Of a DNA stretch of 64,000 nucleotides, positions 15,416-60,899 are shown piece after piece (position 1 is the stretch's first letter; each line of letters opens with the position of its first letter). A program made the position numbers and the translations under genes. The notes under the pieces were generated by a model. That model was not told the origin of the DNA, ran no database searches, and worked only from the letters and a program-made list of their open reading frames with translations. Source of the stretch: Synergistales bacterium. GTDB taxonomy: Bacteria > Synergistota > Synergistia > Synergistales > JAFGMB01. Location: positions 1,760,001-1,824,000 of the forward strand of contig OY762654.1 of the NCBI GenBank assembly GCA_963666205.1. The letters run 5' to 3'.

Positions 15416-15419
15416 AGCT

Positions 15420-42973: not shown

Positions 42974-42993
42974 AAAAAGGGACCATTATTCCA

Positions 42994-44373
42994 ATGAGCA
43001 TTTCCAGTATTTTCGAGATAATAGGGCCTGTCATGATAGGCCCTTCCAGTTCCCATACCGGAGGGGCCTACAGAATGGGAATAAAGGCCAGAACACTCCT
43101 AAAAGAAGAACCGGTCCAGATCAGGATTGTTCTGTATAATTCCTACGCCAGAACATGTCAGGGTCATAAGACACATGTGGCTATCCTTGCCGGCTGCCTC
43201 GGTTTTGGACCAACTGATCATAGAATAATCGGATCCTTCGAGTACGCTTCAAATTCCAATATCAGGGTTATCCTTTCCCACTCCTTTGATGAATCCCTTC
43301 ATCCCAATACAGCCGATATTGAATTGACTTCAACTTCAGGAAGATCCCTTCGGCTAAGAGCAATATCCATCGGAGGAGGGGCTATTCAGGTTCAGGAAGT
43401 TGCGGAATCACATTCATCAGATAGAGGGAGCTTTTATCCTGTTGAACGGGAAAATGAAGATTTTACCGGAATCGAAGATATTCCCGTTATCTGCGGTCTC
43501 GAAAGTTTTTCCGAGCTTCTTGAAGAAGCTGAAAACAAGGGGATCAGTCTTTCGGAAATAATCCTTAACCAGGAATCCAGGGCTGCCGGGGCTCTGGAAG
43601 AAGACATTCTGGCCAAGGTATCAGAGATCCTGAATGTAATGAAAAAAGCGATAAATAGAGGTGTAAAAGGGAATGTGTCTACTCTTGGCGGATTATCAGG
43701 GAAAGATGCATCCCTTATATCAGACAGAAAAGGCAGCAAACAGGTTCTCAGAGATCCTGCTTTTTCGAAAACCCTTGCTTATGCTCTTGCCGTGAATGAG
43801 GTCAATGCTTCCATGGGGGTAGTTGCGGCAGCCCCTACAGGTGGTGCGTGTGGAGTTCTTCCTGCGGTGCTGCTTGCGATGGCAGAATCCCATAACCTGG
43901 AGGAAGAAAATATCATAAGAGCCCTGGTAACAGCAGGAGGTATTGGTGCAAGGATAGCGAAAAAAACCTCACTTTCTGCTTCTGTCGCAGGGTGTCAGGT
44001 TGAGGTAGGTGTGGCCGTGGCGATGGCTTCTGGTGCACTGGTAGAACTTCTCGGAGGAACTCCACGGGAGGCAATTGAAGCTTCAGCAATAGGACTCAAA
44101 AGTTATCTGGGGCTCGCCTGCGATGCCATTGCAGGCCTGGTGGAAGTTCCCTGTATAAAACGGAATGCGATTGGAGGCAGTGCATCTCTTGCAGCAGCCC
44201 AGATGGCTCTCCTGGGGATAAAGAGCCAGGTTCCTATGGATGAAGTGGTCTGGGCCCTGGCTGACATTGGCAGTAAGATGCCCCTCTGTTTCAGGGATAC
44301 CGTCTCTGCAGGCCTTGCCCTTACTGAAACTGGGAAAAAAGTTTACAGTAATATTTATGGTGAAGAACTCTAG
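42994..44373 (+). CDS. sdaA: Fe-S L-serine dehydratase, beta and alpha subunits fused
   Basis: IGPVMIGPSSSHT, HPNT and SIGGG (beta); AVNEVNASMG, PTGGACG, GCQ.E, GLACD and VEVPCIKRN (alpha). Confidence 0.85.
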   Translation: MSISSIFEIIGPVMIGPSSSHTGGAYRMGIKARTLLKEEPVQIRIVLYNSYARTCQGHKTHVAILAGCLGFGPTDHRIIGSFEYASNSNIRVILSHSFDESLHPNTADIELTSTSGRSLRLRAISIGGGAIQVQEVAESHSSDRGSFYPVERENEDFTGIEDIPVICGLESFSELLEEAENKGISLSEIILNQESRAAGALEEDILAKVSEILNVMKKAINRGVKGNVSTLGGLSGKDASLISDRKGSKQVLRDPAFSKTLAYALAVNEVNASMGVVAAAPTGGACGVLPAVLLAMAESHNLEEENIIRALVTAGGIGARIAKKTSLSASVAGCQVEVGVAVAMASGALVELLGGTPREAIEASAIGLKSYLGLACDAIAGLVEVPCIKRNAIGGSASLAAAQMALLGIKSQVPMDEVVWALADIGSKMPLCFRDTVSAGLALTETGKKVYSNIYGEEL

Positions 44374-44618
44374 CTTATAACTTTAACCCTCTATCTACGG
44401 GGTTGTTCCTTTCTGAGAATTGATTTTTCCAAATGAAGAAAATATTTACATTTTGTTTCCTTTCTTGTTGACTTAAAACATATTGATATCTATTATCATT
44501 AGTGGTCTTTTGGAAAACTTAAAACTGAGAATTTGATATAAAGAAGGGAAAAGTTTTTATAACTGTTCCGGCCTTGAAAATATTTGCAACGCCATTTCTT
44601 TCCTAGGGGGAACGACAA

Positions 44619-45917
44619 ATGTTTACAATCAGGGAATTTTTGAGATCGGAAGTGAAGCCTGCATTGGGATGTACTGAGCCCGGTGCGGTGGCACTGGGCG
44701 TAGCGAGGGCCGTAGAGGAACTTGGAGGAGCCCCCGTTAAAGAGATCGAGGTAGTGGTAAGCGACAGCATATACAAGAACGGCATGTACGTAGGTATTCC
44801 AGGTACAGGAGGCCTCAAGGGCAACGACATAGCAGCAGCCATGGCAGCCCTTCAGGGAAAGTCGGAATACGGCCTTGAAGTTCTCAAGGACTGCGATGCT
44901 GATACTGTGAAAAAGTCCCAGGCCATGGTGGATTCAGGGAAGGTGGTCATAATCCCCGACCTTGACCGCCACGGAGTATATGTGGAATCCAGGGTGAGCA
45001 GTGAAAATGACACAGCAGTGACGGTCATAGAGAGCACCCACACCAATATAACGAAGGTTACCCTCAACGACAGGGTCATATTTGAAACAGAAAAAGGGAC
45101 AGAGGACAAGAACGGCAGTAAGACCCTATCCATCCCCGAGCAGGTGGAAAGGATGAACTACTCGGAGCTGGTCAGTATGGCTGAGGACATGGACGCAGAG
45201 GACGTGGACTACGTCATGAACGGAGTGGACATGAACCTCACCATAGCCGAATACGGATTCACTCACAACGTAGGCATCAACCTCGGATCCACCATAAAGA
45301 AACTGGCAGGTGAGCATTACGACTCCGATGACCTGAGCAGCAGGATCAAGGCAGTGGCGGCGGCAGCCTCCGACGCACGAATGGACGGAGCACCCTATCC
45401 CGTTATGAGCAGTGCCGGAAGCGGCAACCACGGGATCACCGCCATCCTTCCCGTATACGTAGCAGGAGATCATTATGGCAAGAGCAGGGAAGAGATAGCG
45501 AAAGCCATAGCCTTCAGCCACCTCACCACATCCTTCATAAAGAGCAGGATGGGCAGGCTCAGCCCCGTATGCGGATGCAGCGTAGCTGCAGGGGCAGGAG
45601 CGGCATCGGGGATCGTCTATCTTCTGAGTAAAGACATAGCAAAGGCAGAGAAGGCAGTGGAGATGGTGCTTGGCAACCTGGTGGGGATGGTATGTGACGG
45701 AGCGAAGGAGACCTGTGCCCTGAAGGTAGGGACGGGAGCCCTTGAATCCTACCATGCGGCCATGATCGTGATGGGAGGCAATGGCCTGAACGGACCCCAG
45801 GGAGTGGTGGACGATACCATAGAGAAGACCGTGGCAAACGCTGCTTCCATCAATGTGGAAGGAATGACGGAAGTCGACAGTATTATCATTGATTTCATAA
45901 AACAAAGGTTCGCATAA
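44619..45917 (+). CDS. Serine dehydratase alpha-like protein / L-cysteine desulfidase (YhaM/CyuA family)
   Basis: PALGCTEP, DARMDG, SGSGNHG-type motif (SAGSGNHG), LSPVCGC and GMVCDGAKETCALK. Confidence 0.85.
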   Translation: MFTIREFLRSEVKPALGCTEPGAVALGVARAVEELGGAPVKEIEVVVSDSIYKNGMYVGIPGTGGLKGNDIAAAMAALQGKSEYGLEVLKDCDADTVKKSQAMVDSGKVVIIPDLDRHGVYVESRVSSENDTAVTVIESTHTNITKVTLNDRVIFETEKGTEDKNGSKTLSIPEQVERMNYSELVSMAEDMDAEDVDYVMNGVDMNLTIAEYGFTHNVGINLGSTIKKLAGEHYDSDDLSSRIKAVAAAASDARMDGAPYPVMSSAGSGNHGITAILPVYVAGDHYGKSREEIAKAIAFSHLTTSFIKSRMGRLSPVCGCSVAAGAGAASGIVYLLSKDIAKAEKAVEMVLGNLVGMVCDGAKETCALKVGTGALESYHAAMIVMGGNGLNGPQGVVDDTIEKTVANAASINVEGMTEVDSIIIDFIKQRFA

Positions 45918-47906: not shown

Positions 47907-48019
47907 CCTTCTTCTTTAAGTTGTTACCATCCGGGAGATTAATATTCAGTTGCCCCATGTCAGATTTACCGAAATCCTCTCCTTTAAAACCCGATAATAC
48001 CCTCTTGTTGTTCTTTGAG

Positions 48020-48088
48020 TTGACAAATCCGGTTACTGTGCCTATATTTTTAAGTATATTTTGAAGTATACTTAAAAATATACTTAAA
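48020..48088 (+). promoter_or_regulatory. Sigma70 promoter and 40-bp palindromic operator
   Basis: ttgaca(48020)-17 nt-tatatt(48043); 48049-48088 tttaagtatattttgaagtatacttaaaaatatacttaaa pairs at 19 of 20 positions. Confidence 0.75.
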
Positions 48089-48102
48089 TTACGGGGGGAG
48101 GA

Positions 48103-49197
48103 GTGATATTTTTGGATAAAGTTACCGTAATTGGTGCGGGAAATGGAGGTCAGGCTGTAAGTGCATTTCTTTCGACTCAGGGTCTGGATGTAGCTCTTTT
48201 TGAACACCCTGATTTTGAGTCAAATCTTGATGGAATAAGAGAAAACGGCGGAGTTCAGTTCGAAGGACCCATAATGCAGAACTTTGCAAGGATACCTCTG
48301 GTTACAGTTGAAATTGAGGAAGCCCTTTCAGATTCTCAGATGATCATTATGATCGTTCCTTCCTATGCCCAGGAAAACATGTTCCGCCTTGCCCTTCCTT
48401 ATCTCAGAGATGGACAGGTAGTTTTTGTTCTTCCAGGGAATTTTGCGTCCCTGTGTTTTGCCAGAATAGCGAAGGAGGCTGGAAAACAGCTTTTCTTTGC
48501 TGAAGGGGCCACTATCCCCTTTGCCTGTCGAATAACGGATCCCGGGAAGATCTATGTGGGCGGTCTTAAAGAAACATTCCCGGTCGGTTGTTTTCCAGGC
48601 GGGTGTAACAATTCCGTAAAATCCTGGATCCACAAATACTTTCCTTTTAACTTCTTTTTTGCAGAAAATGTACTTGAGGCTGCTCTTTCGAACGGGAACA
48701 TGATAGTCCATCCAACCACGGCAGCACTGAACACTGGCTGGATAGAGAGTACTGGGGGAAATTTCTGTTTTTACAGGGAAGGCATGTCAGAATCGGTCTG
48801 CAGGGTAGAAGAAGCCATAGACAGGGAAAGGGTCGCCGTAGGTAAAGCCCTTGGACTGAAAATACCTCCATTTGTAGAACTTATTAACAGGTGGTACAGA
48901 CTTAATGTCAGTTCTATAAGGGAATTTGCATCTACCTCTGCTACCCATAATAATTTCGGTCATGATGCACCTTCATCTCTGAATAACAGGTATGTATCGG
49001 AGGATATCCCCTTTCTTATGGTTCCGGTTATGAGTCTTGGCAGGGTCCTGGAAATAGAGTGTCCCCTGATAGAAAGTTTTGTACGTCTTGGCTCTGTTAT
49101 CAATGGTGTTGATTATCTGCAACAGGGCAGGACCCTGCAGCAAATGGGTCTGGAAGGTATGACAAAAGGAGAAATAATAGATTTTGTAGGTGTTTGA
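48103..49197 (+). CDS. NAD/NADP-dependent opine (octopine/nopaline) dehydrogenase family
   Basis: IGAGNGGQA, LSNGNMIVHP, IDRER..VG.ALG and RYVSEDIPF. Confidence 0.88.
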   Translation: MIFLDKVTVIGAGNGGQAVSAFLSTQGLDVALFEHPDFESNLDGIRENGGVQFEGPIMQNFARIPLVTVEIEEALSDSQMIIMIVPSYAQENMFRLALPYLRDGQVVFVLPGNFASLCFARIAKEAGKQLFFAEGATIPFACRITDPGKIYVGGLKETFPVGCFPGGCNNSVKSWIHKYFPFNFFFAENVLEAALSNGNMIVHPTTAALNTGWIESTGGNFCFYREGMSESVCRVEEAIDRERVAVGKALGLKIPPFVELINRWYRLNVSSIREFASTSATHNNFGHDAPSSLNNRYVSEDIPFLMVPVMSLGRVLEIECPLIESFVRLGSVINGVDYLQQGRTLQQMGLEGMTKGEIIDFVGV

Positions 49198-49247
49198 ACC
49201 TTGATAAGAGAGCAGGAATGGAACATAGTTTAAAAGGAGGTGTCAAC

Positions 49248-50669
49248 TTGAATATTCCGGTAATAGTGGGAGCTCTTGCATTTATGGGACTGATAGTGGG
49301 AATAGGTTTCTGGTCAGGGCTCAATGTTAAATCCAGTAAATCCTTTTTCCTCGGTGGGGGAAGCCAGGGTTTCTTCCCCATAATTGCGACCCAGGCCGCC
49401 ACCAGTATAGGAGGAGGATGCATGATAGGCTGGGCCGGTTTTGGATATACCTTTGGATTCGGTGTCGCCTGGTACGGAATAGTATGTATCATTGGTCTGG
49501 CTATCCTGGTTTTTACGGTAGCTTCCTTTTTTCAGAAGAACGGATTTTATACAATACCTGACTGGATCTGTCATTCCCTCGGAGAAGACAAGTTCTTAAG
49601 AGGTATAGCTGCTCTTCTTGCCATGTGGATGCTTGTTGGAGCCTGGGCGGGGAATGCTGTTGCCACAGGTACCATAGTGAATCAGCTCACTGGATTGCCT
49701 GTAAAAATGGGAGCCCTTATAGGCGGTCTTCTTGTCCTTGGTTATTGTTCCGTTGGTGGTCTTCAGTCAGTAATAAAGGTGGATATGTTCAATTTCGTAA
49801 TACTCTGGCTTGGAGTAATTATCCTGATTCCTGCAACCCTGATCATGGCTGGCGGTTTTTCGAATATCCTTGCTTCAAATCCGGTCGTGAATCATGATAT
49901 CTGGCCTGGAATGAAAGCAGGCCTTGGCTGGTTCATTGCAGTTACACCTGGAATGATGACCATGCAGACGGCCTATCAGAGATTTTCCGCCTCAAAGAAC
50001 GAAAAGGTCGCGAAATGGGGTATTTACGGAACTATAATTTCCATTGTCATTATAGTAGCCTATGCTTCAATAACGGGAATGGCCATTCGCACAATAAACC
50101 CGGAAATAGCAAGGGGACAGATGGCTGTTCCATGGTTTGTTGTCAATAAGCTTAATCCTGTTTTTGCCATATTTATTCTTGGCGGTATCCTGGCCGCGCT
50201 TTTCTCCACCTCCGATTCAGTCCTCAATTCAGCCTCGGCAAATATTGCCAAGGATTTTTATGCAGGCATATTCAACCCTAAAGCCACCGATAAGGATATG
50301 CTCAGGGCAGGAAGGATAGCAACCATTGTTATAGGTATAGTCGGAATAGCAATTGCCCTTTACATTCCCTATATCATGAAACTGCTTATAGCAGGTTACG
50401 GTGTCAGTGCGGGAGGATTGCTTTTCCCCATATTCCTTGCCCATTACTGGAAAAGGACCACCCGAAATGGAGCCCTGGCCGGTATGATAGGCGGTTTTAT
50501 CATCGCGTTTCCCGGGGCATTTATACCATCTGTTGGAAAGGTGCTCAGCAGTTACTTCTATAATCCCATCCTTGCCGCTCTTATGATATCCCTTATCCTG
50601 ACTGTTATAGTAAGTCTTGGGACCAAAAAGGAAAAAGAACCCGTTCCCAGCGAAGCGATCGCTTCCTGA
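49248..50669 (+). CDS. Sodium:solute symporter (SSS) family
   Basis: ATSIGGG, GGLQSVIKVD, YQRF, AALFSTSDS and G.IGG; TTG 49248 after AGGAGG. Confidence 0.88.
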   Translation: MNIPVIVGALAFMGLIVGIGFWSGLNVKSSKSFFLGGGSQGFFPIIATQAATSIGGGCMIGWAGFGYTFGFGVAWYGIVCIIGLAILVFTVASFFQKNGFYTIPDWICHSLGEDKFLRGIAALLAMWMLVGAWAGNAVATGTIVNQLTGLPVKMGALIGGLLVLGYCSVGGLQSVIKVDMFNFVILWLGVIILIPATLIMAGGFSNILASNPVVNHDIWPGMKAGLGWFIAVTPGMMTMQTAYQRFSASKNEKVAKWGIYGTIISIVIIVAYASITGMAIRTINPEIARGQMAVPWFVVNKLNPVFAIFILGGILAALFSTSDSVLNSASANIAKDFYAGIFNPKATDKDMLRAGRIATIVIGIVGIAIALYIPYIMKLLIAGYGVSAGGLLFPIFLAHYWKRTTRNGALAGMIGGFIIAFPGAFIPSVGKVLSSYFYNPILAALMISLILTVIVSLGTKKEKEPVPSEAIAS

Positions 50670-50691
50670 TACTGATTTTATGTCTGCATCT

Positions 50692-50731
50692 TTCCTGACC
50701 CTGATCATACTGATCGTATCAGGGTCAGGAA
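50692..50731. terminator. 14-bp stem hairpin between SSS and gntR
   Basis: ttcctgaccctgat-N12-atcagggtcaggaa. Confidence 0.5.
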
Positions 50732-50838
50732 TTGTTATTTCCAGAAGACACGCATTTGACATATCAGGTCCTGATAATGCACTATTATTCCATGTAGTAA
50801 AGTTAATGAAGACCACCATGGGGTGTGGAGGGGAAATA

Positions 50839-51531
50839 ATGAATAAAACCGTTAAGGCAGAGGATAGAGCCCACAGGGAAATACTGAACCTCATCATTCA
50901 ACAGAAATTTGGTCCTGGTGAGGTGATAATGGAAGCGGAGCTCACCCCCATGCTTGAAATGAGCAGAACTCCTGTCAGGGCAGCCCTTGGAAGGCTTGCT
51001 ACAGAAGGTCTGATCGAAAAACATCCTGGGACAAAAAGTTATATTATCCCCCCTGTAACTCCTGAAGACCTCAGACAGGTATTTCACGTAAGAAGCGTGC
51101 TTGAATCTGATGCGGCATCGCAAGCCGCTATTTGCGCTTCAGAAAATGAAAAGAAAAGACTCAAGGAGATACTGGAGCAGGAGAACAGCTATGACTTTTC
51201 CAGGAATTCTTTTGATTATTCTGCTTTCAGCCAGTATTTTGAACCTTCCCAGCGACTTCATTTTGCAATCGCTGATGTCTGTCACAATGCCTATCTCAAA
51301 AGATTTATCCTTCCAGCGTACTGGAGGTCTCAGCTCTATTTCTATTTCTTTGACAGTTTCTCTTTTTTGAGCAGGAAACAGGCAGCAGATCCTATTAATA
51401 TCCATCTTGAAAAAAGTGTGGAAGAACACAATCGTATAGTTGATGCAATTCTTTCCAGAGATAGTGAAGGTGCCCGAAAGGCGATGAAGGAACATCTTGA
51501 AACTACCATGTCCATTCTCAGGCCTTTCTGA
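50839..51531 (+). CDS. GntR/FCD-family regulator
   Basis: MSRTPVRAAL HTH and EEHNRIVDAI..RD..MKEHL; ATG 50839 after GGAGG. Confidence 0.88.
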   Translation: MNKTVKAEDRAHREILNLIIQQKFGPGEVIMEAELTPMLEMSRTPVRAALGRLATEGLIEKHPGTKSYIIPPVTPEDLRQVFHVRSVLESDAASQAAICASENEKKRLKEILEQENSYDFSRNSFDYSAFSQYFEPSQRLHFAIADVCHNAYLKRFILPAYWRSQLYFYFFDSFSFLSRKQAADPINIHLEKSVEEHNRIVDAILSRDSEGARKAMKEHLETTMSILRPF

Positions 51532-51590
51532 AGGAGGTCCCCAAAAAGCAGATATCAGAATAAGAAACAACCAGGGAAAAAGGAAGGATC

Positions 51591-52169
51591 ATGGCCATGA
51601 ATGAAGTGATAAGTAACATCAAAACCCGAAGGAGTATCCGAAAATATCAGCCTGTCCAGGTGGAGCAGGAAAAGCTGGATGCCATTCTTGACGCTGCCAT
51701 ACATGCTCCAAGCGGGAACAACCAGCAGCCCTGGCACTTCCTGTTAGTTCAGGACAATGGCATTATCGAAGATCTGGACCTCAGGATCAGGAAAAGCATG
51801 GCGGAAAGTGGAATTTCCAGGATGGTTAAATTGGGCGAAGATCCGAAGTATCGTGTCTTTTTCCATGCCCCTATAATCGTAATAGTATCTGGCAATGAGA
51901 TTAATTATGCCCCGGAGGGGCACCTCATTCCCTTTGCTGACTGCTGCGCAGCCATACAGAACATGCTCCTGGCTGCCCACAGCCTGGGAGTAGGGTCCTG
52001 CTGGATCGGCCTCGCCCGTTACCTTTTCCGACATCCTGAAAGAATGAAAGATCTACCTATCCCCGAAGGATTCAAACCATATTATGCCGTCTGCCTCGGT
52101 TATCCGGATCCATCCTTCAGGACAAACTGTCCGAAGAGAAAAGAGGGAGTAGTGGATTATCTGAGATAA
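51591..52169 (+). CDS. Nitroreductase-family protein
   Basis: RRSIRKY, APSGNNQQPWHF, QNMLLAAHSLGVGSCWIG and LGYP. Confidence 0.92.
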   Translation: MAMNEVISNIKTRRSIRKYQPVQVEQEKLDAILDAAIHAPSGNNQQPWHFLLVQDNGIIEDLDLRIRKSMAESGISRMVKLGEDPKYRVFFHAPIIVIVSGNEINYAPEGHLIPFADCCAAIQNMLLAAHSLGVGSCWIGLARYLFRHPERMKDLPIPEGFKPYYAVCLGYPDPSFRTNCPKRKEGVVDYLR

Positions 52170-52270
52170 TGTCAATCAGTTTGTTTATCAATAAAAATTT
52201 CAGAAGCATACTATAGAATATAAAGTTTCCTGTATGCTTCTGAATTCTTATAAGTTTGTGTTTAAATTTA

Positions 52271-53161
52271 TTAATCGACAAATTTGGGGAGAAATTCCTT
52301 TTCCAGTTCTCTGAATTGAGGGAACCCCACAAGATCCTTAAAATCTGAGAATGGAACTACGAGGTCTGTCCTCTCAGGAGCTATTTTATCTCCTTTTATT
52401 ACTTCCAGATAGTTGATCATTCCCTGTACAGCTGCAAAGAGTGGTCCCACTGGCAAGCTTATTCGGGCCACTCCCATCTCGCGAAGTTTTTCTATGGCAA
52501 TTAGTGGGGTTTTACCTCCTACCACAGCATCCATAAGATTGATACTTACAGGGGCATTTATTCCCTTGACTATTTCATTTATCTGTTTAGGGGAGCGGGG
52601 AGCTTCTACAAAAATAAGATCTGCCCCTGCTTCTGCATATGCGTTCCCCCTCCGGATAGCTTCATCAACTCCTGACACAGCTATAGCATCAGTCCTTGCA
52701 TTGATTACAAAGTCCGGATCTAAATTTTTCTTTACGGATTTGCAGGCTTTTATCTTGAGGACCATTTCATCAAGAGAGACTATCTGTTTTCCTTCAAGGT
52801 GCCCACATCGTTTAGGAAAAAACTGGTCCTCAATATTCATTCCCGCTGCACCCGCCCTGATAAGCTTTTCTGTTACATATCTCGCATTGATGGCATTGCC
52901 GAATCCAGTGTCAGCATCAGCCATTACCGGAATATTCACTGCATCGATGATATTTCTTGTAAATTCCAGCATCTCACTGAAACTCAAAAAAGCCATGTCA
53001 GGCATTCCAAGATAGGTTGCAGCAAGGCCAAAACCACTGACTTGAAGGGCTTTAAAACCTGCTTTTTCTATCAATTTGGCGGAGAGGGCATCCTGTGCTC
53101 CAGGACAAACAAGGGCCTGTTTATCCAGGAGCATGTTTTTCAATTGCGTTGTTTTTCTCAT
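52271..53161 (-). CDS. Isocitrate lyase / PEP mutase family C-C lyase (2-methylisocitrate or 2,3-dimethylmalate lyase-like)
   Basis: DALSA, ADADTGFG, IEDQ..PKRCGH, INARTDA and GADLIFVE. Confidence 0.88.
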   Translation of the reverse strand: MRKTTQLKNMLLDKQALVCPGAQDALSAKLIEKAGFKALQVSGFGLAATYLGMPDMAFLSFSEMLEFTRNIIDAVNIPVMADADTGFGNAINARYVTEKLIRAGAAGMNIEDQFFPKRCGHLEGKQIVSLDEMVLKIKACKSVKKNLDPDFVINARTDAIAVSGVDEAIRRGNAYAEAGADLIFVEAPRSPKQINEIVKGINAPVSINLMDAVVGGKTPLIAIEKLREMGVARISLPVGPLFAAVQGMINYLEVIKGDKIAPERTDLVVPFSDFKDLVGFPQFRELEKEFLPKFVD

Positions 53162-53232
53162 CCGTTTCCTCCTGTTTATATTGACCGTGATGTATGGTTT
53201 TAAGGTTTAATCCGAGTTTCTGTAATCATAAT

Positions 53233-53733
53233 TTATAGTGAATTTCCATAGCCCTTTCTCTTTCTAAGAAAGCCCACGAGGCCACCTTCTTTAAGGATAT
53301 CAATCATAACGTTGGGCATGGATTCTACTCTTGTTTCAGTTCCCTTTGTAATATTGAAAAGGGTTCCTGACTCTACATTGTATTCCAGTTCATCCTCATC
53401 TGATATGGCAGAAGTATCACATTCCACAATAGACAGTCCAACATTTATTGCGTTCCTGAAAAATATTCTGCCGAAGGAAGAGGCTACAATGCAGCCGACG
53501 CCTGCGTTCTTTAGCGCGAGAGGGGCCTGTTCTCTTGACGAACCGCACCCGAAATTTTCTCCCCCTACAACAAAATCACCTTTACTTAGTCTGCTATGAA
53601 AATCAGGGTCCAGATCTTCCATGGCATGTTCGGCTAGAATGGACATGTTTAGAGTTTTTGTATATTTGCCGGCAATAATAAGGTCTGTATTGATATCATC
53701 ACCGTATTTCAGAGCTTTCCCATATAGTTTCAT
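53233..53733 (-). CDS. LeuD/HacB/DmdB-type hydro-lyase small subunit
   Basis: GDDINTD, NFGCGSSREQA and RIFFRNAIN. Confidence 0.9.
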   Translation of the reverse strand: MKLYGKALKYGDDINTDLIIAGKYTKTLNMSILAEHAMEDLDPDFHSRLSKGDFVVGGENFGCGSSREQAPLALKNAGVGCIVASSFGRIFFRNAINVGLSIVECDTSAISDEDELEYNVESGTLFNITKGTETRVESMPNVMIDILKEGGLVGFLRKRKGYGNSL

Positions 53734-53735
53734 TT

Positions 53736-54962
53736 TTAGGCCTCCATCTTGCGGGGATCAGTAATTTTCCCTGTCAGGGAACTTGCTGCTGCTGTAGCCG
53801 GAGAGGCAAGATATATACAGGCTTTATTATTTCCCATCCTTCCCTTGAAGTTTCTGTTCGTTGTTGAGAGAACATTTTCATTGTCTCCAGGAATTCCATT
53901 ATGTGTACCAACGCAGGCTCCACAGCCTATAGGAGCCAGGGTTGCACCGGCATTGAGAAGAGTGGAAATGATTCCTTCTTCAATGGCCTGTAACAATATT
54001 TTTTTTGAAGCTGGAGCGACCAGAAACCTTACAGAGGGGTGGATTTTCCTACCCTCAAGGATTTTTGCCGCAATCCTGAGATCATCGACCCGGGCATTTG
54101 TACAGCTTCCCAGGAATATCTGTTGGATTGGAATCCCTTCAACCTCAGGAATTGAACAAACATTATCTACCGTATGGGGTTTTGCTACCATAGGGGAAAG
54201 TTTTGAGAGATCAACTTCCACATATCTCTCTATCACAGCTCCGGCATCTGATTGAAGGCCTGTCGAGGAATCACAGATAACACCGCATTTCGCTCCCATC
54301 TCTACCACCATATTGCAAATGGTCATTTTTTCAGAAAGAGAGATCGCTTCAAGGAAGTCTCCATGAAATTCTATAGCTTTATATACAGCACCCTGTGCAC
54401 CTAAAGTTCCGACTATTGAAAGAATAAGGTCTTTGGCAAAGACTCCATCTGGTAGATTTCCATTGAGGTTTATCTTGATAGTCTGTGGAATCCTGAACCA
54501 TGATTTACCTGTAAACATGGCTGCAGCGAGATCAGTTGAACCGACACCAATGGAGATAGTCCCGACTGCTCCATAGGTACATGTATGGGAATCAGCACCA
54601 AGGACAAGATCTCCTGCTTTAACGTACTCATTTTCTATAATAAGTTGGTGACATATCCCTTCCCCAATGTCATGAAACAGGCATGCCTGTTTCATGGAGA
54701 ATTCCCGAATGAGACTGTGCAGGTTGGCAATATTCTGATTCGGAGCGGGGGTGGCATGGTCAAGAATAAACACAGTGCCTCGGGGTTTTGCGATATAGAG
54801 ACCTCCCATTTCTTCGAAAGCCTTGATCGCAAGAGGGCCTGTAGTGTCAGAAGCCATAACAAGATCAACATCACATATGTGGTATGACCCCGACCTGGCG
54901 AGGGATCCTGAGTGTTTAGAAAAAACCTGTTCAGTTATTGTAAGGGGAGTAACCTTGTTCAT
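53736..54962 (-). CDS. LeuC/HacA/DmdA-type Fe-S hydro-lyase large subunit
   Basis: GICHQ, DSHTCTYG, GSCTN, CGACVG and NRNFKGRMG. Confidence 0.9.
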   Translation of the reverse strand: MNKVTPLTITEQVFSKHSGSLARSGSYHICDVDLVMASDTTGPLAIKAFEEMGGLYIAKPRGTVFILDHATPAPNQNIANLHSLIREFSMKQACLFHDIGEGICHQLIIENEYVKAGDLVLGADSHTCTYGAVGTISIGVGSTDLAAAMFTGKSWFRIPQTIKINLNGNLPDGVFAKDLILSIVGTLGAQGAVYKAIEFHGDFLEAISLSEKMTICNMVVEMGAKCGVICDSSTGLQSDAGAVIERYVEVDLSKLSPMVAKPHTVDNVCSIPEVEGIPIQQIFLGSCTNARVDDLRIAAKILEGRKIHPSVRFLVAPASKKILLQAIEEGIISTLLNAGATLAPIGCGACVGTHNGIPGDNENVLSTTNRNFKGRMGNNKACIYLASPATAAASSLTGKITDPRKMEA

Positions 54963-55723
54963 TTGTTCCCATCCTTGTAACCAAGGGATCTTGATATATC
55001 TCCGGTTGCTTTAAGAATGAGATCAACAAATTGATTGACACGTTCAGGGGTAAATCTTATTGTTGCTCCTGAGATGGTTAATCCTGCAACTACAGTTCCA
55101 TCCCACCTTCTGATAGGGGCAGATACGGTTGAGGCCCCAGGTATTCTTTCACCATGTGAAACAGCAAAACCTTTTTTTATGATTTCGTCCAACTGCTTGT
55201 TTATTTCAATCATAGTCTGGTCTAACTCTCCCAGATTGTCTTTAATTATTTTATGAGCGTCCTCTCTATTCATATATGCGAGCAGAAGCTTTCCGGATGC
55301 AGCCGAATATAAGGGGAGTCTTTTCCCTATTGTTGCAGAATATCTCAAGGTATGAGAGCTGTCGATCTTATCTATGCAGAGCCTGGAACCTTCCATCACA
55401 ATATTGATCTCTATGGTTTCCTGGGTAAGCATTGATAGTTCTTCCATGACTGGTCTGGATACTTCCCGGAGTCTTAGTTTGGATTCAGCAACCTTCCCAA
55501 GCTGGAAAAGAGCCATACCTAGAGAATATTCCTGTGTGGCCTGATCTCGTTGGAGGAAGGCTTGATCATGTAGAGATGCTACAAGTCGGATAATTGTTGT
55601 TTTTGGTAATTTTACAGATTCAACTATTTCAGAAAGCTGCATCTGAGGTTTATCAAAACTGAAACACTTAAGGATGCTTAAAGCTCTTTCGACAGATCTT
55701 ACCGGGTTATGAGAGTTTTTCAT
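54959..55723 (-). CDS. IclR-family regulator
   Basis: RSVERALSIL, LPKTTIIRL, ASGKLLLA and SAPI..TISG. Confidence 0.92.
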   Translation of the reverse strand: MKNSHNPVRSVERALSILKCFSFDKPQMQLSEIVESVKLPKTTIIRLVASLHDQAFLQRDQATQEYSLGMALFQLGKVAESKLRLREVSRPVMEELSMLTQETIEINIVMEGSRLCIDKIDSSHTLRYSATIGKRLPLYSAASGKLLLAYMNREDAHKIIKDNLGELDQTMIEINKQLDEIIKKGFAVSHGERIPGASTVSAPIRRWDGTVVAGLTISGATIRFTPERVNQFVDLILKATGDISRSLGYKDGNK

Positions 55724-55746
55724 TTTATATCTCCTCTCTGAGTTAA

Positions 55747-55936
55747 GTCCATTAAATGGTTTTAAATACCATAATAATAGTTAGATTATAGGTATGTTCC
55801 AGGGCATTTGTCAAATAGATAGGATTGTAATATTGCTAACATATAGATTTAAAAAGTGCAAACTTGACAAAAACGCTATGCCATAGGATATTATACCCAT
55901 GGTCTATAGAACGGGAACAAAGTCCATCTAATGGAC
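55747..55936. promoter_or_regulatory. Divergent promoter region with two GTCCAT-N3-ATGG(AC/TT) palindromes (candidate IclR operators)
   Basis: gtccattaaatggtt (55747-55761) and gtccatctaatggac (55922-55936); ttgaca near 55865. Confidence 0.65.
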
Positions 55937-56031
55937 CTAATCCACTTGTAACAAAATTCATCTTGATTTGAGATAAGTTATTAAGGAATGAGAAACATAA
56001 AATTAAAGTATGTCAGGGAGGTAAGTGAAAT

Positions 56032-56967
56032 ATGAGGAAAAGTATTTTGGCGTTCTTGATGATGTCTTTGGCTATTGTGGTTATCTTTCCTCTAACGTCA
56101 GGAGCGGCTCCGTTTCCAGAGAAGGAGATAAATTTTATCGTAGCGTATAATCCTGGTGGGGGTTCTGATACGACTGCAAGAATTTTTGCGAAGTTTGCTA
56201 ACAAATATCTTGCTAAACCCATCATAATTGTCAATTATCCTGGCGGTGGTGGTTCCATAGGTCAGCAGAGGGGTGCTCTTGCCGAGCCCGACGGATATAC
56301 CCTAACCCTTATTACTACGTCTCTTACTATTCATCCTTTAACAAAGAAGCTTCAGTATGATTATTCTTCATTCAAGCCTGTAGTACAGTTAACGAATGTC
56401 CCGGACATTCTCATGGTAAGAGGTAATGACGAGGATCTAAATTCTGCTGAAAAATTCCTTGCATATGCCAAAGAAAAACCTAATGCCATAACTGTATCTA
56501 CTTCCGGCGTAGGAGCCACAGATCATTTTACTGCCCAGGTACTTCAGGAGGAGGCTGATATTAAACTTACTCTTGTTCCATACGGTGCAGATGCAAAGGT
56601 GGGTCTTCTTGGCGGACATGTCAGTGCTGCAGTGGGGGGTCCCGAGGATGTCTTTGATCTTCCCGATCTGAAGGCCATACTTGTTTTTGCTGAGGAGAGG
56701 CTCGATACTCTTCCTGATGTTCCCACTGCCAGGGAATTGGGGATAAAATGGGAAAGCTCAGTATGGAGAGGAATTGCTGTTCCCAAGGATACTAATGCTG
56801 AAGTAATTGAATATCTTGGGAAAATATGTAAACAGACAATGGATGATCCTGAGTATCAGAAAACGATGGCCGATCTTGGACTAGGTTTCCAATATCTCGA
56901 TGGGCCTTCTTTTGCGAATAAAATAAAGAATCAGGCTGACACTTACAAGCGCCTTATGGGCAAGTAG
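56032..56967 (+). CDS. tctC: Tripartite tricarboxylate transporter substrate-binding protein (TctC/Bug)
   Basis: Signal peptide; PGGGSDTTAR, PGGGGSIG, PDGYTL and LPDVPT.RELG. Confidence 0.9.
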   Translation: MRKSILAFLMMSLAIVVIFPLTSGAAPFPEKEINFIVAYNPGGGSDTTARIFAKFANKYLAKPIIIVNYPGGGGSIGQQRGALAEPDGYTLTLITTSLTIHPLTKKLQYDYSSFKPVVQLTNVPDILMVRGNDEDLNSAEKFLAYAKEKPNAITVSTSGVGATDHFTAQVLQEEADIKLTLVPYGADAKVGLLGGHVSAAVGGPEDVFDLPDLKAILVFAEERLDTLPDVPTARELGIKWESSVWRGIAVPKDTNAEVIEYLGKICKQTMDDPEYQKTMADLGLGFQYLDGPSFANKIKNQADTYKRLMGK

Positions 56968-57057
56968 TCGTAGCAATATTATGAAAACATGGGTTGGCGA
57001 AGGTCAAGTAAACTTTGCCAACCTTTTTTCTAGAAAGCGAGGAAGATCTAAAATATT

Positions 57058-57501
57058 ATGTTACGTAAAAATGGAGAATTAATAATATATGGAGTTTGTG
57101 TCATTCTTTGCGTATTTTTTCTTTTTGTTATCAAAGATCTTCCGGCAACGGCACGAAACTTTCCTCAATTCAGTTTAATATCCCTGATTGTTGTAGCCGG
57201 TTTGGGTTTTATCAAAACATTACTGTCTCTGCAAAAATCTGATAAAGAGAAGGCAGCTGCGGATTGTGGAGGAGAAAGGAAATTCCTATTTACCCTTCTA
57301 TTATCAGTTCTTTTTGTTTTTTCAATGAAATATCTTGGGTTTTATACAGCATCTTTACTGTACCTTACATCACTTATGTATCTCTTAAATATCAGGAAGA
57401 TCAAGGTTGTCTTAATGGCGAACATTGTGTTTCTTACAGGGATTTACCTGGTATTTTCTCTTTTTCTCAACGTTCCTGTTGAGAAAGGGATATTTTTTTA
57501 A
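57058..57501 (+). CDS. tctB: TctB-like small membrane subunit
   Basis: Four TM segments, FP and LGFY motifs; located between tctC and tctA. Confidence 0.82.
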   Translation: MLRKNGELIIYGVCVILCVFFLFVIKDLPATARNFPQFSLISLIVVAGLGFIKTLLSLQKSDKEKAAADCGGERKFLFTLLLSVLFVFSMKYLGFYTASLLYLTSLMYLLNIRKIKVVLMANIVFLTGIYLVFSLFLNVPVEKGIFF

Positions 57502-57516
57502 GAGTCACAGGAGGAA

Positions 57517-58998
57517 ATGATATTGAGTATTCTTTCAGCTTTTGCTACTGCTTTTTCCTTTTGGGGTCTTGTTGCGTCTTTTGGTGGAGTTTTTGGTGGT
57601 ATTGTCATAGGTTCACTCCCGGGCTTATCAGCTACAATGGCAGTAGCTCTCCTGATACCGGTTACCTTTGCCATGTCTCCAGGCATAGCTCTTATCCTTC
57701 TTGTAGGGATTTACTGTGGTTCTGTTTATGGTTCGTCCATTTCTGCCATTCTTATAGGTGTTCCAGGAACACCTTCGGCTGCGGCTACCTGGATGGATGG
57801 TTATCCCATGACAAAGAACGGCGAGGCATCAAAGGCACTGGGTGGTTCAATTATAGGATCTTTTATTGGGGGTATCTTCAGTGCTTTCGCTCTAGCTCTC
57901 CTTGCCCCTGTCCTGGCCAAAGTTGCCCTTAAGTTCGGGCCTCCTGAATATTTCTCTTTGGCCATTTTCGGACTTTCAATAATAGTCAGTCTGGTTTCCA
58001 AATCTTTCCTCAAAGGCCTAGTGTCTGCTTTACTTGGTCTAATCCTTGCATCAGTCGGGATGGATCCGATCTTGGGAGAGGTCCGAATGACCTTTGATAG
58101 CATAAACTTAATGAGTGGTATACCCTTTGCCTGTGCAATAATTGGTATTTTCGGTTTTTCTCAAGTTCTCCAGCTCTGTCAACAGAATATCATTGCAGAA
58201 TCATCAGAAAATGATATTTCAGATAGAAGGCTTCCCAACCTGAAAGAAATATTCAAATTCACCCCAACTATTATCAGATCTTCTATTATTGGCACTATTA
58301 TTGGAATAATACCAGGTGCTGGAACAAGTATGGCTTCTTTTATAGCCTATAACGAAGCTAAACGTTTTTCAAAGAACAGAGAAAAATTTGGCACAGGGTA
58401 TCTGGAAGGAGTAATTGCGCCAGATACAGCAAATAATGCTGTAACAGGTGGATCAATGGTTCCTATGCTTGCTTTAGGTGTTCCCGGGAACGGCGTTTCA
58501 GCCATTTTCATTGGAGCCCTTATGATCCATGGAATAGCCCCAGGTCCATTACTTTTTAAAAATCATGCGGACCTTGTCAATACAATCTTTCTTGGTTTTT
58601 TTGTAGCAAATTTCTTCATGCTCATAATTGGGTTGCTGGTCGCTAAATATATGTCCAGGGTTACTCTTATCCCGACGGGTATTCTTACTCCGATGATATG
58701 TGTACTTTGTGTCATAGGATCCTATGCCATCCGTAATAATCTTTTTGATGTATGGGTAATGCTTTTCTTTGGATTGGGAAGCTATTTCCTTTCAAAGTTT
58801 AAATTTTCTCTCATACCCTTTGTTTTGGCCTTGATATTAGCTCCCATTGCTGAAAAATCATTCTACCAGTCTCTTCTTATTTCTCAGGGTAGTTATTCAA
58901 TCTTTTTCACCAAGCCCATAAGTCTTGTCCTGATTGTACTGGCAGTCCTTTCTGTTGTAATACCACTTTTCAAAAAAGGACTTAAAGAACAGGAATAA
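57517..58998 (+). CDS. tctA: TctA-family large membrane subunit
   Basis: LPGLSATMAVALL, PGTPSA, DGYPM, PGAG, TANNA and LGVPG. Confidence 0.92.
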   Translation: MILSILSAFATAFSFWGLVASFGGVFGGIVIGSLPGLSATMAVALLIPVTFAMSPGIALILLVGIYCGSVYGSSISAILIGVPGTPSAAATWMDGYPMTKNGEASKALGGSIIGSFIGGIFSAFALALLAPVLAKVALKFGPPEYFSLAIFGLSIIVSLVSKSFLKGLVSALLGLILASVGMDPILGEVRMTFDSINLMSGIPFACAIIGIFGFSQVLQLCQQNIIAESSENDISDRRLPNLKEIFKFTPTIIRSSIIGTIIGIIPGAGTSMASFIAYNEAKRFSKNREKFGTGYLEGVIAPDTANNAVTGGSMVPMLALGVPGNGVSAIFIGALMIHGIAPGPLLFKNHADLVNTIFLGFFVANFFMLIIGLLVAKYMSRVTLIPTGILTPMICVLCVIGSYAIRNNLFDVWVMLFFGLGSYFLSKFKFSLIPFVLALILAPIAEKSFYQSLLISQGSYSIFFTKPISLVLIVLAVLSVVIPLFKKGLKEQE

Positions 58999-59034
58999 AC
59001 AATATCTGAATGCAGCCCGAAAGGTAGGGATCAA

Positions 59035-60297
59035 ATGGGTAAGACCTTTGCGGAAAAAGTTTTGGGAAATGCAGCGGGAAAAGATGTTGAACCAGGTGAG
59101 ATAGTAAATGTCTACCCTCACTTTTGCATGAGTCATGACAATGCTGCTGCTGTAAGAAAAATATTCAGCAGGATAAATACTGCAAAAGTCTGGGACCCTG
59201 AGAGGCTAGTATTTATCCTGGATCATGCCATACCTGCACCAAGTGACAAACATGCATTGAACCACCAACAGATCAGAGAATTTGTAATGCAACAGAATCT
59301 TGTCCATTTCTATGATGTTACCAGTGAGGGTGGAGTATGCCATCAGGTGATGTGTGAAGAAGGGTATGCTCTTCCGGGGTTGATAAATGTGGGAACTGAT
59401 AGTCATACTTGTACCCATGGTGCCTTTGGGACATTTTCTACCGGAATTGGCAGAACTGAAATGGCAGCAGTCTGGGCAACAGGGCATATATGGTTCAGAG
59501 TGCCAGAATCGATCAAGATAATTCTTGAAGGATCTTTTGCTCCAGGGGTAGTGGTTAAAGATCTTATTCTCCGGATCATTGGTGATATAAAAGCTGATGG
59601 AGCCGATTATCGTTCTCTGGAGTTCCATGGTTCTGCCGTAGAAAAGATGAGCCTTGCAGAGAGAATGACCCTGTGCAATATGGGTATCGAAATGGGTGCC
59701 AAAAATGCTGCTTGTCCTCCAGATAAAAAGGTTCTAACACATATAGAAATATGTGCCAAGAGGAATGACTGGAAGGTTCTTTGGGCGGATGACAATGCAA
59801 AATATGCCCGAATACTTAATTATGATCTTGGAACAGTCGAACCAGGGGTAGCTAAACCCCATACGGTAGATAATTACTCTCAAGTTTCTGTGTTGTTTGG
59901 AACTCCAATCCACCAGGCATTCATAGGAACCTGTACCAACGGTAGATTCGAAGATCTTTACGCTGCTGCTCAGATCCTTAAAGGTCAGAGAGTATCAGTA
60001 AGAACTATCGTTATACCTGCCTCATGGAAGGTATACAGAAAAGCTATGAAGGAAGGGCTCCTTGACATATTCCTGGATTCAGGTTGTGTTATCGCAAATC
60101 CCGGATGTGGGCCCTGCCTAGGAAATCATGAAGGAGTATTGGCTCCTGGAGAGGTATGTGTATCTACTGCCAATCGCAATTTCAGAGGTCGAATGGGCAA
60201 CAGAGACAGCTATATATACCTGGCAAGTCCGTTAACTGTAGCCGCGTCTGCACTGAAGGGAGAAATTGCTGACCCAAGAGAGGTGCATAAGGGATGA
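59035..60297 (+). CDS. Second LeuC/HacA-type Fe-S hydro-lyase large subunit
   Basis: GVCHQ, DSHTCTHG, GTCTNGR, CGPCLG and NRNFRGRMG. Confidence 0.9.
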   Translation: MGKTFAEKVLGNAAGKDVEPGEIVNVYPHFCMSHDNAAAVRKIFSRINTAKVWDPERLVFILDHAIPAPSDKHALNHQQIREFVMQQNLVHFYDVTSEGGVCHQVMCEEGYALPGLINVGTDSHTCTHGAFGTFSTGIGRTEMAAVWATGHIWFRVPESIKIILEGSFAPGVVVKDLILRIIGDIKADGADYRSLEFHGSAVEKMSLAERMTLCNMGIEMGAKNAACPPDKKVLTHIEICAKRNDWKVLWADDNAKYARILNYDLGTVEPGVAKPHTVDNYSQVSVLFGTPIHQAFIGTCTNGRFEDLYAAAQILKGQRVSVRTIVIPASWKVYRKAMKEGLLDIFLDSGCVIANPGCGPCLGNHEGVLAPGEVCVSTANRNFRGRMGNRDSYIYLASPLTVAASALKGEIADPREVHKG

Positions 60298-60788
60298 ATA
60301 TAACCGGTAAGGTGTGGAAATATGGTGACAATGTAGATACTGACGTGATTTTTCCCGGGAAATATACGTATACAATTACCGATGAAAAGGAAATGGGAAA
60401 ACATGCACTTGAAGACCTTGATCCTGACTTTGTTTCCAATGTGCAGCCCGGAGATATTATTGTTGGAGGGAGAAACTGGGGGTGCGGATCTTCCAGACAG
60501 CAAGCCGTAACTTGTTTAAAAGTGAATGGGATTGCTGCTATTGTTGTTAAGGGAGTTTCCAGAATCCATTACAGGAACGCTATCAATGAAGCTCTTCCTG
60601 TCATAGTCTGTCCTGAAGCTGTAGATTCTATAGAGCAGGGAGATACTATTAGTATCGATCTTTCTAACGGAAAAGTCTACACGAGAAAAGGTGAATTTTC
60701 ATTTAAACCCTTTCCTCCTGTAATTACTGGTCTTATTGAAAGTGGCGGACTCATCCCTTTTGTTAATGAGAACCTTGGTAAAAGATAG
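60294..60788 (+). CDS. Second LeuD/HacB-type small subunit
   Basis: GDNVDTD, NWGCGSSRQQA and RIHYRNAIN. Confidence 0.9.
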   Translation: MNITGKVWKYGDNVDTDVIFPGKYTYTITDEKEMGKHALEDLDPDFVSNVQPGDIIVGGRNWGCGSSRQQAVTCLKVNGIAAIVVKGVSRIHYRNAINEALPVIVCPEAVDSIEQGDTISIDLSNGKVYTRKGEFSFKPFPPVITGLIESGGLIPFVNENLGKR

Positions 60789-60818
60789 ATTAAGAATTCT
60801 ATATCATCCTGGCGATTG

Positions 60819-60862
60819 AATAAAGAAGGGCGAAGCCTGTAACTGCTTCGCCCTTCTTTATT
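60819..60862. terminator. Bidirectional terminator
   Basis: aataaagaagggcgaagc-N8-gcttcgcccttctttatt. Confidence 0.8.
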
Positions 60863-60899
60863 CTGTAGTTTCTGTCTTCAATTATTTGAAACATAAATA

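Follow-up and report, generated by a model that had tools for sequence, protein, structure and literature searches.

The window analysed here, a stretch of 64,000 nucleotides (nt) from a Synergistales bacterium (contig OY762654.1, positions 1,760,001 to 1,824,000), carries at 52271–60788 a block of nine genes in which a tripartite importer, two different LeuCD-type hydro-lyases, an IclR-family regulator and a carbon–carbon (C–C) lyase of the isocitrate lyase/phosphoenolpyruvate mutase (ICL/PEP-mutase) superfamily stand together. Genes were called as open reading frames (ORFs) and assigned to families with Pfam and NCBIfam profiles; all nine are intact at the coordinates given in Table 1. The minus-strand arm, iclR-leuC1-leuD1-lyase, diverges from the plus-strand arm, tctC-tctB-tctA-leuC2-leuD2, across a 308-bp spacer, intergenic gaps within either arm run from −4 to 90 bp, and the block contains neither leuA nor leuB, a layout that a first-pass annotation had read from this DNA and that ORFs, Pfam and NCBIfam alike confirmed. 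The full set of TctC, TctB and TctA domains in one run is that of a tripartite tricarboxylate transporter. The two hydro-lyases, LeuCD1 and LeuCD2, are no recent duplicates, since their large subunits share 43% identity and their small subunits 40%. Third-position GC content (GC3) was 0.30–0.38 across the block, compared with 0.54–0.56 in two flanking genes, a weak signal.

The block is a real, regulated, mobile catabolic unit. In a congener, G165, the corresponding site is empty, the sequences that flank the block beyond the lyase and beyond leuD2 lying only ~30 bp apart there, and in G157, from another family, the same nine genes form a single run (iclR-C1-D1-tctCBA-C2-D2-lyase) after a tRNA-Ala gene; together these argue that the grouping is more than chance. 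A TctC orthologue at 1e-60 or better was found in 2/268 genomes of the phylum, namely G157 and the host genome itself (G000; single contig, 2.95 Mb, 100% complete). The LeuD2 sequences of these two genomes make up a separate subclade (tree support 0.987) and have GSSRQQAV in common; the LeuC2 tree leaves the G000–G157 pairing unresolved (support 0.06). There are hints of a third copy of the block, in that the database relatives nearest LeuC1 and LeuC2 have cluster members on contigs of two matching lengths (7937 and 11503).

Operator-like palindromes were present downstream of both divergent promoters. The perfect palindrome on the right occurs only once in the 2.95-Mb genome, and a palindrome pair of this kind arose in 31/2000 resamplings of the spacer. 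In relatives, TCCA-N5-TGGA was found in 19/27 divergent iclR-lyase spacers (0.04 expected, five duplicate loci excluded, the relatives not being independent), and a TGGTTT-N3-AAACC form occurred in G157 and in another compared genome, G153; the window shows that form at 55757. A promoter scan over 9 kb gave 30 matches against 20.8 expected, so the weaker matches mean little. The first-pass annotation had proposed that an importer, two distinct hydro-lyases and a C–C lyase make up a self-contained, jointly regulated catabolic unit, and this is supported: the arms are co-conserved, as the G157 run, the single insertion or deletion (indel) and the restricted TctC indicate, and operator-like sites lie on both.

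Table 1. Genes and other features of the block and its edges, in window coordinates.
Feature	Position	Strand	Remarks
ICL/PEP-mutase-superfamily C–C lyase, 296 aa	52271..53161	-	KRCGH with Cys119; Q40, N109, N154, D211, R233, S235
LeuD1, small subunit of hydro-lyase ‘X’	53233..53733	-	loop GKYTKT
LeuC1, [4Fe-4S] large subunit of hydro-lyase ‘X’	53736..54962	-	MASDTT variant
IclR-family regulator (iclR)	54959..55723	-	42% identity with island regulators of G157 and G153
TctC solute-binding protein	56032..56967	+	PF03401
TctB	57058..57501	+	PF07331
TctA	57517..58998	+	PF01970; 71% identity with G157 copy
LeuC2, large subunit of hydro-lyase ‘B’	59035..60297	+	GTCTN, CGPC
LeuD2, small subunit of hydro-lyase ‘B’	60294..60788	+	island-specific GSSRQQAV; loop GKYTYT
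Left operator-like tandem palindromes	55747..55771	.	GTCCA-N5-TGG at 55747; TGGTTT-N3-ATACCA at 55757; between leftward promoter and iclR start
Leftward sigma-70-type promoter	55785..55814	-	12/12 consensus
Rightward sigma-70-type promoter	55864..55892	+	10/12 consensus
Right operator-like sites	55900..55936	.	perfect 6-3-6 palindrome 55922-55936
Whole insertion/deletion relative to congener G165	52166..60826	.	8.66 kb
19-pair hairpin between leuD2 and convergent aminotransferase	60818..60863	+	present also at empty site in G165

The lyase is a clear member of its superfamily. It matched PF13714 with 200.7 bits, its structure model (pLDDT 84.8) has the expected fold (TM 0.88 to 1zlp), the SG, PD, DADTG, EDQ and RTD motifs are all kept, and the KRCGH loop at residues 117–121 contains a Cys119 found in 120/120 homologues; a search of the ESM Atlas returned the generic family only. 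Within the superfamily it scored below every NCBIfam cut-off, the best scores being those of PrpB models (TIGR02317, 242 bits against a cut-off of 354.4). In alignment with E. coli PrpB (1mum), Phe242 and Phe271 stand in place of R241 and R270, which we take to be the residues that hold the far carboxylate of succinate, and Y43, H113, L234 and M232 are replaced by Q40, N109, S235 and R233 (the roles of Tyr43, His113 and Leu234 are likewise assumed). PMC7609661 gives Tyr43 of PrpB a proposed role. The polar Gln/Asn/Ser/Arg set is invariant in 120/120 homologues and, in the model, maps to barrel strands or their ends. F184 and P237 agree with PrpB, Pro237 being present in 120/120 homologues. Compared with the pocket of 3fa3, the lyase shares the Pro and the loss of the Arg residues, and has Gln, Asn and Ser for Tyr, His and Ile. 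Given Phe at the PrpB Arg positions and the polar Gln40, Asn109, Ser235 and Arg233 opposite, we infer that the substrate would have a small, acetate-like leaving group and a larger charged group on its hydroxyl-bearing carbon. Pyruvate plus succinate, suggested as products by the first-pass annotation, does not sit with Phe at both Arg positions and scores under every cut-off.

A Ser at the Pro236/Thr347 position, presumably the mark of oxaloacetate acetylhydrolases, is present in petal death protein; the lyase, with Pro237, fails this test. Oxaloacetate decarboxylase or hydrolase activity as the main role was set aside on the grounds of Pro237 and of several loci that hold only regulator, transporter and lyase. 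G000 contains six LeuC-like, five ICL-like and seven TctC-like genes in total. The four further ICL-family genes (L004:8820-14465, L007:14570-19259 and L007:1093-1950) comprise a tandem pair that follows a TRAP transporter and GntR, a third flanked by IclR and a TRAP transporter, and a lone fourth; the island lyase signature is absent from all four.

A biosynthetic leuC-leuD-leuB-leuA run lies outside the block at 1189.7–1194.2 kb of G000, and because leucine biosynthesis is thus encoded elsewhere the block looks catabolic; a biosynthetic leuCD role for an island pair was not borne out. Profile searches of G000 with positive controls found no gene of the citrate-synthase family (PF00285) and no PrpF (PF04303) or Mii, nor was there an RraA-like gene (control positive in 7/14), a malate synthase (apart from a CitE cross-match), a single-chain aconitase or a citrate-type isocitrate dehydrogenase (IDH). 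PrpC and PrpD are missing from the block, and the sole PrpD-family gene of G000 belongs to another operon. Methylaspartate ammonia-lyase (mal) was found in 20/268 phylum genomes, G000 not among them. Two candidate links were dropped accordingly: a glyoxylate-forming cleavage, for want of malate synthase in G000, and the methylaspartate pathway, for want of mal there.

Both large subunits keep the cluster cysteines (C287, C347 and C350 in LeuC1; GTCTN and CGPC in LeuC2) along with the DH, CHQ, DSHT and NRN motifs, GSSR is kept in LeuD1 and LeuD2, and both pairs pass the cut-offs of PRK00402 and TIGR02087, models of the two-subunit isopropylmalate isomerase (IPMI)/homoaconitase family. Both fail as biosynthetic LeuCD (TIGR02083, 409 and 452.5 against 610.65; TIGR02084, 179.5 and 170.9 against 245.85) and as methanogen HacAB (NF040615, 422 and 463 against 550; NF040604, 154.5 and 145.1 against 230), and in the tree LeuC1 and LeuC2 fall outside the leucine clade. 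The clade of LeuC1 (support 0.97, 72/179 sequences) includes pairs whose genes are flanked by those of a NifV-type synthase and of a dehydrogenase with an isocitrate motif; from their motifs and setting, such pairs are probably two-subunit aconitases. These pairs carry a QDGT motif (L081–L088, L093, L094, L107 and L109, in records of Coriobacteriia, Pelotomaculum, Syntrophomonas and Methanomassiliicoccales). The LeuD1 loop reads YTKT; its Lys takes the place of the Arg in M. jannaschii HacB (YLRT), a position at which we take a basic residue to signal a tricarboxylate.

LeuC2 belongs to a clade with an orthologue in 95/268 phylum genomes, whose neighbours at 20 sampled loci included a dehydrogenase (18), CitEF (16) and a further LeuCD pair (19). 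It is 71% identical to a paralogue at 16.1 kb of G000 that lies beside a homoisocitrate-dehydrogenase-like gene and CitDEF. That dehydrogenase ranks best on the AksF homoisocitrate dehydrogenase (HICDH) model, below its cut-off, and has Ile at the IDH Asn position, as does T. thermophilus HICDH; by phmmer, three IDH entries came slightly above HICDH. The surrounding operon (L001:5094-15051; G000 9.1–19.1 kb) is conserved, comprises a regulator, an HD protein, two LeuCD pairs, the dehydrogenase gene and CitDEF, and is separate from the citrate cluster of relatives. It also contains, at L001:10273-11553 (G000 14272-15552; orthologues L075 and L160–L179), a LeuC homologue that has the cluster cysteines, no DH/CHQ histidines (DL/DY, GQH) and Arg before the first Asp, a pattern seen in 22/23 clade members (the other is gapped). 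It usually adjoins a LeuC2-type pair and CitDEF, and may catalyse an isomerisation or a hydro-lyase reaction with inverted stereochemistry. Wider scans added little: a metagenome scan gave 21 loci, three of them informative (L009, L010 and L014), and a scan of genome contigs with the LeuC1 alignment gave, among the matches listed, mostly unrelated pairs sharing general LeuC motifs.

The clade of the lyase itself was detected in 54/268 phylum genomes (74 matches), once in a 301-genome sample of another phylum (57%, beside IclR and TAXI-TRAP) and once, distantly, in 10 further genomes. At 55 loci (two of them duplicates), genes within 9 kb of the lyase were TAXI-TRAP (46), IclR (39), CitEF (24), LeuCD1-type (22), RraA-like (21), DUF1932 dehydrogenase (21), PrpD-family (13, usually in three copies), Tct (10), flavoprotein (8) and LeuCD2-type (1). 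LeuCD1 and the lyase thus form the core, and LeuCD2 with TctCBA an add-on, given the 22 loci of the one pair against one of the other. LeuCD1 is absent from 33/55 lyase loci, and since several of these hold only regulator, transporter and lyase (for example L180, L182, L184, L196 and L213), the lyase substrate can be imported as such. Closest to the RraA-like partner is the aldolase that acts on 4-carboxy-4-hydroxy-2-oxoadipate, a compound sharing its C7 skeleton with homocitrate. One locus, L014, has both LeuCD pairs, RraA and DUF1932 and lacks the lyase.

What stands in the lyase slot elsewhere is informative. Beside LeuCD1-clade pairs outside the phylum it is taken by an HMG-CoA-lyase-family protein and a family III CoA-transferase (L015, L016, L018, L028 and L080), and at L071, in G152, by CitDEF. 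Both systems release acetyl units from 3-hydroxy-3-substituted acids, R-C(OH)(COOH)-CH2-COOH or similar, and by analogy the ICL-family lyase would do the same without CoA.

Two further arrangements recur around the lyase clade. A widespread operon, iclR / lyase-(DUF1932-RraA)-TAXI-TRAP-CitDEF, lacks LeuCD and has TCCA-N5-TGGA in its divergent spacer (L183, L185, L186, L188–L190, L193, L194, L198, L199, L203, L204 and L207–L212). In another, AtuA (DUF1446) and DUF4387 genes accompany three PrpD-family genes, LeuCD1 and the lyase, never with CitEF in those maps (L067–L069, L072–L074, L077–L079, L214, L215 and L220; L200:6983-8667). In E. coli, whose cleavage of (S)-citramalate is described as unexplained in PMC4682846, AtuA/DUF4387 genes are likewise present, flanked by mal and fumD; AtuA with DUF4387 is a candidate for the missing citramalate-type lyase.

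In relatives, citrate has a cluster of its own, which includes a single-chain aconitase and an NADP-IDH above NCBIfam cut-offs, CitDEF and often tctCBA, and hence the LeuCD2 cluster need not serve citrate. Island TctC was only 26–28% identical to the TctC of these clusters (L226–L228) and failed the orthology test; its comparison with solved structures indicated no ligand. Lyase-linked CitE group with the CitE of dehydrogenase clusters (in two clades) and not with citrate-cluster CitE, with one exception (L185), and the position of E. coli Leu160 is F, Y or P in 20/21 of the lyase-linked CitE, compared with Leu in 10/11 of the citrate set; only four alignment columns separate the sets, and the other three favour neither side, so support from this quarter is modest.

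We consider it somewhat more probable than its opposite that the lyase cleaves some R-C(OH)(COOH)-CH2-COOH acid to acetate and a 2-oxo-diacid. For the particular acid the homocitrate series is our favoured reading, held tentatively and short of an even chance, in which homoisocitrate or cis-homoaconitate would be converted to (R)-homocitrate and cleaved to 2-oxoglutarate and acetate without CoA. TctCBA would import a C7 tricarboxylate (homoisocitrate, cis-homoaconitate or homocitrate), LeuCD2 would interconvert homoisocitrate and cis-homoaconitate, and LeuCD1 would hydrate cis-homoaconitate in ‘citrate mode’ to (R)-homocitrate, whose tertiary alcohol the Mg-dependent lyase would cleave with neither CoA nor an acyl carrier, Arg233 and the Gln/Asn/Ser set holding the extra carboxylate arm. 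IclR would repress both arms at the palindromes, making the route inducible. The substrates and products, the action of the two pairs in series and their order, the role of Arg233 and the repression by IclR are all inferred. Several lines of evidence favour this series: CitDEF, or the CoA-transferase with the HMG-CoA-lyase-family protein, fills the same slot beside LeuCD1-clade pairs; the polar set that replaces the PrpB residues is invariant; the LeuCD2 clade adjoins a dehydrogenase at 18/20 loci and CitEF at 16/20, the G000 copy of that dehydrogenase being HICDH-like; lyase-linked CitE differ from those of citrate clusters; LeuC1 joins the clade of probable aconitases, and the Arg of HacB is matched by Lys in LeuD1; and the RraA-like partner is nearest an aldolase acting on a C7 skeleton. 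Moreover, the same division of labour exists in biosynthesis, where, according to PMC3556520, aconitase acts on homocitrate/homoaconitate and homoaconitase only on homoaconitate/homoisocitrate.

Several observations weigh against the homocitrate series. The LeuD2 loop, YTYT, has no basic residue at the HacB Arg position, and the M. jannaschii rule would then suggest a dicarboxylate; island LeuC2 and LeuD2 also carry substitutions of their own near the active site, so that this pair may have departed from the substrate of its clade. The homoaconitase label for LeuCD2 would itself rest on a neighbour that was named from a motif. In G153, the PrpF-family partner is nearest the 3-methylitaconate isomerase (Mii) of E. 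barkeri (E 6.6e-107, against 2.3e-79 for PrpF), which favours dimethylmaleate or citraconate chemistry. A citrate role has room, because G000 is without single-chain aconitase and citrate-type IDH. In the tree the window lyase groups inside the lyases of PrpD/AtuA-type loci rather than as sister to that of G157, which makes the block a mosaic. Finally, PMC3556520 has M. jannaschii HacAB performing both half-reactions, and a second LeuCD pair may therefore be unnecessary.

The same pocket logic would hold for the citrate series, in which isocitrate or cis-aconitate would become citrate through an aconitase activity divided between LeuCD2 and LeuCD1, one half-reaction each, for CoA-free cleavage to oxaloacetate and acetate. 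The importer belongs to the Tct family, LeuCD1 is related to probable aconitases, and the aconitase and IDH gap in G000 is on its side; the dissimilarity of island TctC to citrate-cluster TctC and the grouping of lyase-linked CitE outside citrate-cluster CitE are not, and CitEF, which stands beside the lyase at 24/55 loci, would duplicate its work were achiral citrate the substrate of both. We regard this series as rather unlikely, and accord about the same standing to a dicarboxylate route from 2,3-dimethylmaleate or citraconate through (2R,3S)-dimethylmalate or (R)-citramalate to pyruvate and propionate or acetate. The nearest solved relatives, petal death protein and other alkylmalate lyases, likewise lack the PrpB arginines, and the LeuD2 loop, the isomerase of G153 and the AtuA/DUF4387 genes of PrpD-type lyase loci, seen also between E. 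coli mal and fumD, point the same way. However, the invariant Q40/N109/S235/R233 set contrasts with the Tyr/His/Ile pocket of the solved dimethylmalate lyase and is missing in the four G000 paralogues, LeuD1 has Lys at the tricarboxylate position, a single hydratase would suffice, and G000 has neither methylaspartate ammonia-lyase nor PrpF/Mii. Of the products named by the first-pass annotation, pyruvate plus propionate, as from Dml, survives as an option, weakened by a polar C2-side pocket unlike that solved structure.

Modified or mixed tricarboxylates (hydroxy-homocitrate, relatives of 4-carboxy-4-hydroxy-2-oxoadipate, hydroxycitrate, or 2-methylcitrate cleaved citrate-side) have a slightly better claim, if still a minor one; here the two pairs would work in parallel on stereoisomers or chain lengths and not in series. 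The RraA-like aldolase, DUF1932, PrpD-family and flavoprotein genes at lyase loci, the gene content of L014 and the derived residues of island LeuCD2 all speak for such acids, as does the inclusion of stereo-isomerases among PrpD-family proteins (PMC12290011). Against them, G000 has no RraA-like gene and no PrpF, and the products must then reach central metabolism unaided. Cleavage of the PrpB or ICL type, in which (methyl- or homo-)citrate would pass through the iso-acid to pyruvate and succinate, or to glyoxylate and succinate or glutarate, is improbable: PrpB models do score best, and KRCGH, F184 and P237 agree with PrpB, but the score is far under the cut-off, both arginines are Phe, and a complete genome contains no citrate-synthase family gene and no malate synthase beyond the CitE cross-match. 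We give hardly any credence to one pair being a biosynthetic isopropylmalate isomerase, with the arms adjacent by accident; both large subunits exceed the broad PRK00402/HacA-family cut-offs, but the LeuC of the leuCDBA run scores 597 on TIGR02083, compared with 409 and 453 for the island copies, neither of which joins the leucine clade, and the block is one indel that recurs in G157.

Members of the lyase clade are automatically annotated as methylisocitrate lyase, oxaloacetate decarboxylase, dimethylmalate lyase or phosphonomutase, and their residues fit none of these well. Returning to the homocitrate series, the lyase could represent a new activity of the ICL superfamily, a cofactor-free (R)-homocitrate (citrate-type) lyase yielding 2-oxoglutarate and acetate at the end of a catabolic pathway with two LeuCD half-isomerisations, and in relatives a CitDEF-type or AtuA/DUF4387 partner might take the opposite enantiomer; this fuller claim is speculative, and we would sooner doubt it than assert it. 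Such an activity could add a reaction to a well-studied superfamily and set the clade's annotation right; splitting a citrate-type acid without CoA would yield acetate and a keto acid in a single step, and AtuA/DUF4387 would gain a function as a C–C lyase. The island would also allow a compact test of a split (homo)aconitase running in the catabolic direction, with ties to the unexplained operon of two LeuCD pairs and CitDEF. The literature covered, which took in few subscription journals, held no description of this cluster, of a homocitrate lyase, or of DUF1932 or DUF4387.

Other features of the window and genome may be recorded here. The hairpin beyond leuD2 is counted as host flank because of its presence at the empty site. 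A second block missing from G165 at this site, at window positions 47907–51594, holds an opine-dehydrogenase-family gene, a sodium:solute symporter and GntR. At 42958–45917 a serine dehydratase with its beta and alpha parts fused (471 aa) precedes an SDH_alpha-family protein of 432 aa; the latter has a paralogue that lies before a tctCBA at L006:1948-3246. Another import-hydrate-cleave unit, in which tctCBA forms one run with a divergent LeuCD pair and a KDPG/KHG aldolase, lies at L002:6114-12320 (G000 594–600 kb), and L005:10951-19938 with L006:390-1925 contains tctCBA, malic enzyme, fumarase C, a PrpD-family gene, a fumarate-lyase-family gene, an aminotransferase and an MFS gene in one run.

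Among known systems, the homocitrate–homoisocitrate isomerisation of fungi and Thermus thermophilus (PMC3556520) likewise uses two aconitase-family enzymes; in the block, LeuCD1, related to probable aconitases, and LeuCD2, from a homoisocitrate-dehydrogenase setting, could similarly carry one half-reaction each. That pathway is biosynthetic and starts from homocitrate synthase, whereas the block has an importer, IclR and a lyase, and neither synthase nor dehydrogenase. In the nicotinate fermentation of E. barkeri, the LeuCD-type hydro-lyase DmdAB is followed by the ICL-family lyase Dml, without CoA; the block resembles it in joining a LeuCD-type hydro-lyase to a CoA-free ICL-family lyase, and differs in its two pairs, its Tct importer, the polar lyase pocket and a genome without the Mii/methyleneglutarate step. 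With the 2-methylcitrate cycle it shares the logic of dehydration, rehydration and cleavage, and PrpD-family genes occur at 13/55 lyase loci, but it has no PrpC or PrpD, no citrate-synthase family gene in the genome and a lyase without the R241 and R270 of PrpB. The nearest solved structures, petal death protein (1zlp) and Aspergillus 2,3-dimethylmalate lyase (3fa3), share 37% and 32% identity with the lyase (TM 0.88), keep the catalytic Cys loop and similarly lack the succinate arginines; they have Phe/Tyr, Phe/His, Ala/Ile and Leu/Ile where the lyase has Gln40, Asn109, Ser235 and Arg233. Citrate and citramalate lyases (CitDEF) and the pairs of family III CoA-transferase and HMG-CoA-lyase-family protein occupy the same pathway slot and take an acetyl unit off a tertiary alcohol, although they are unrelated in sequence and need an acyl carrier or CoA, whereas the ICL-family lyase would release free acetate, forgoing acetyl-CoA.

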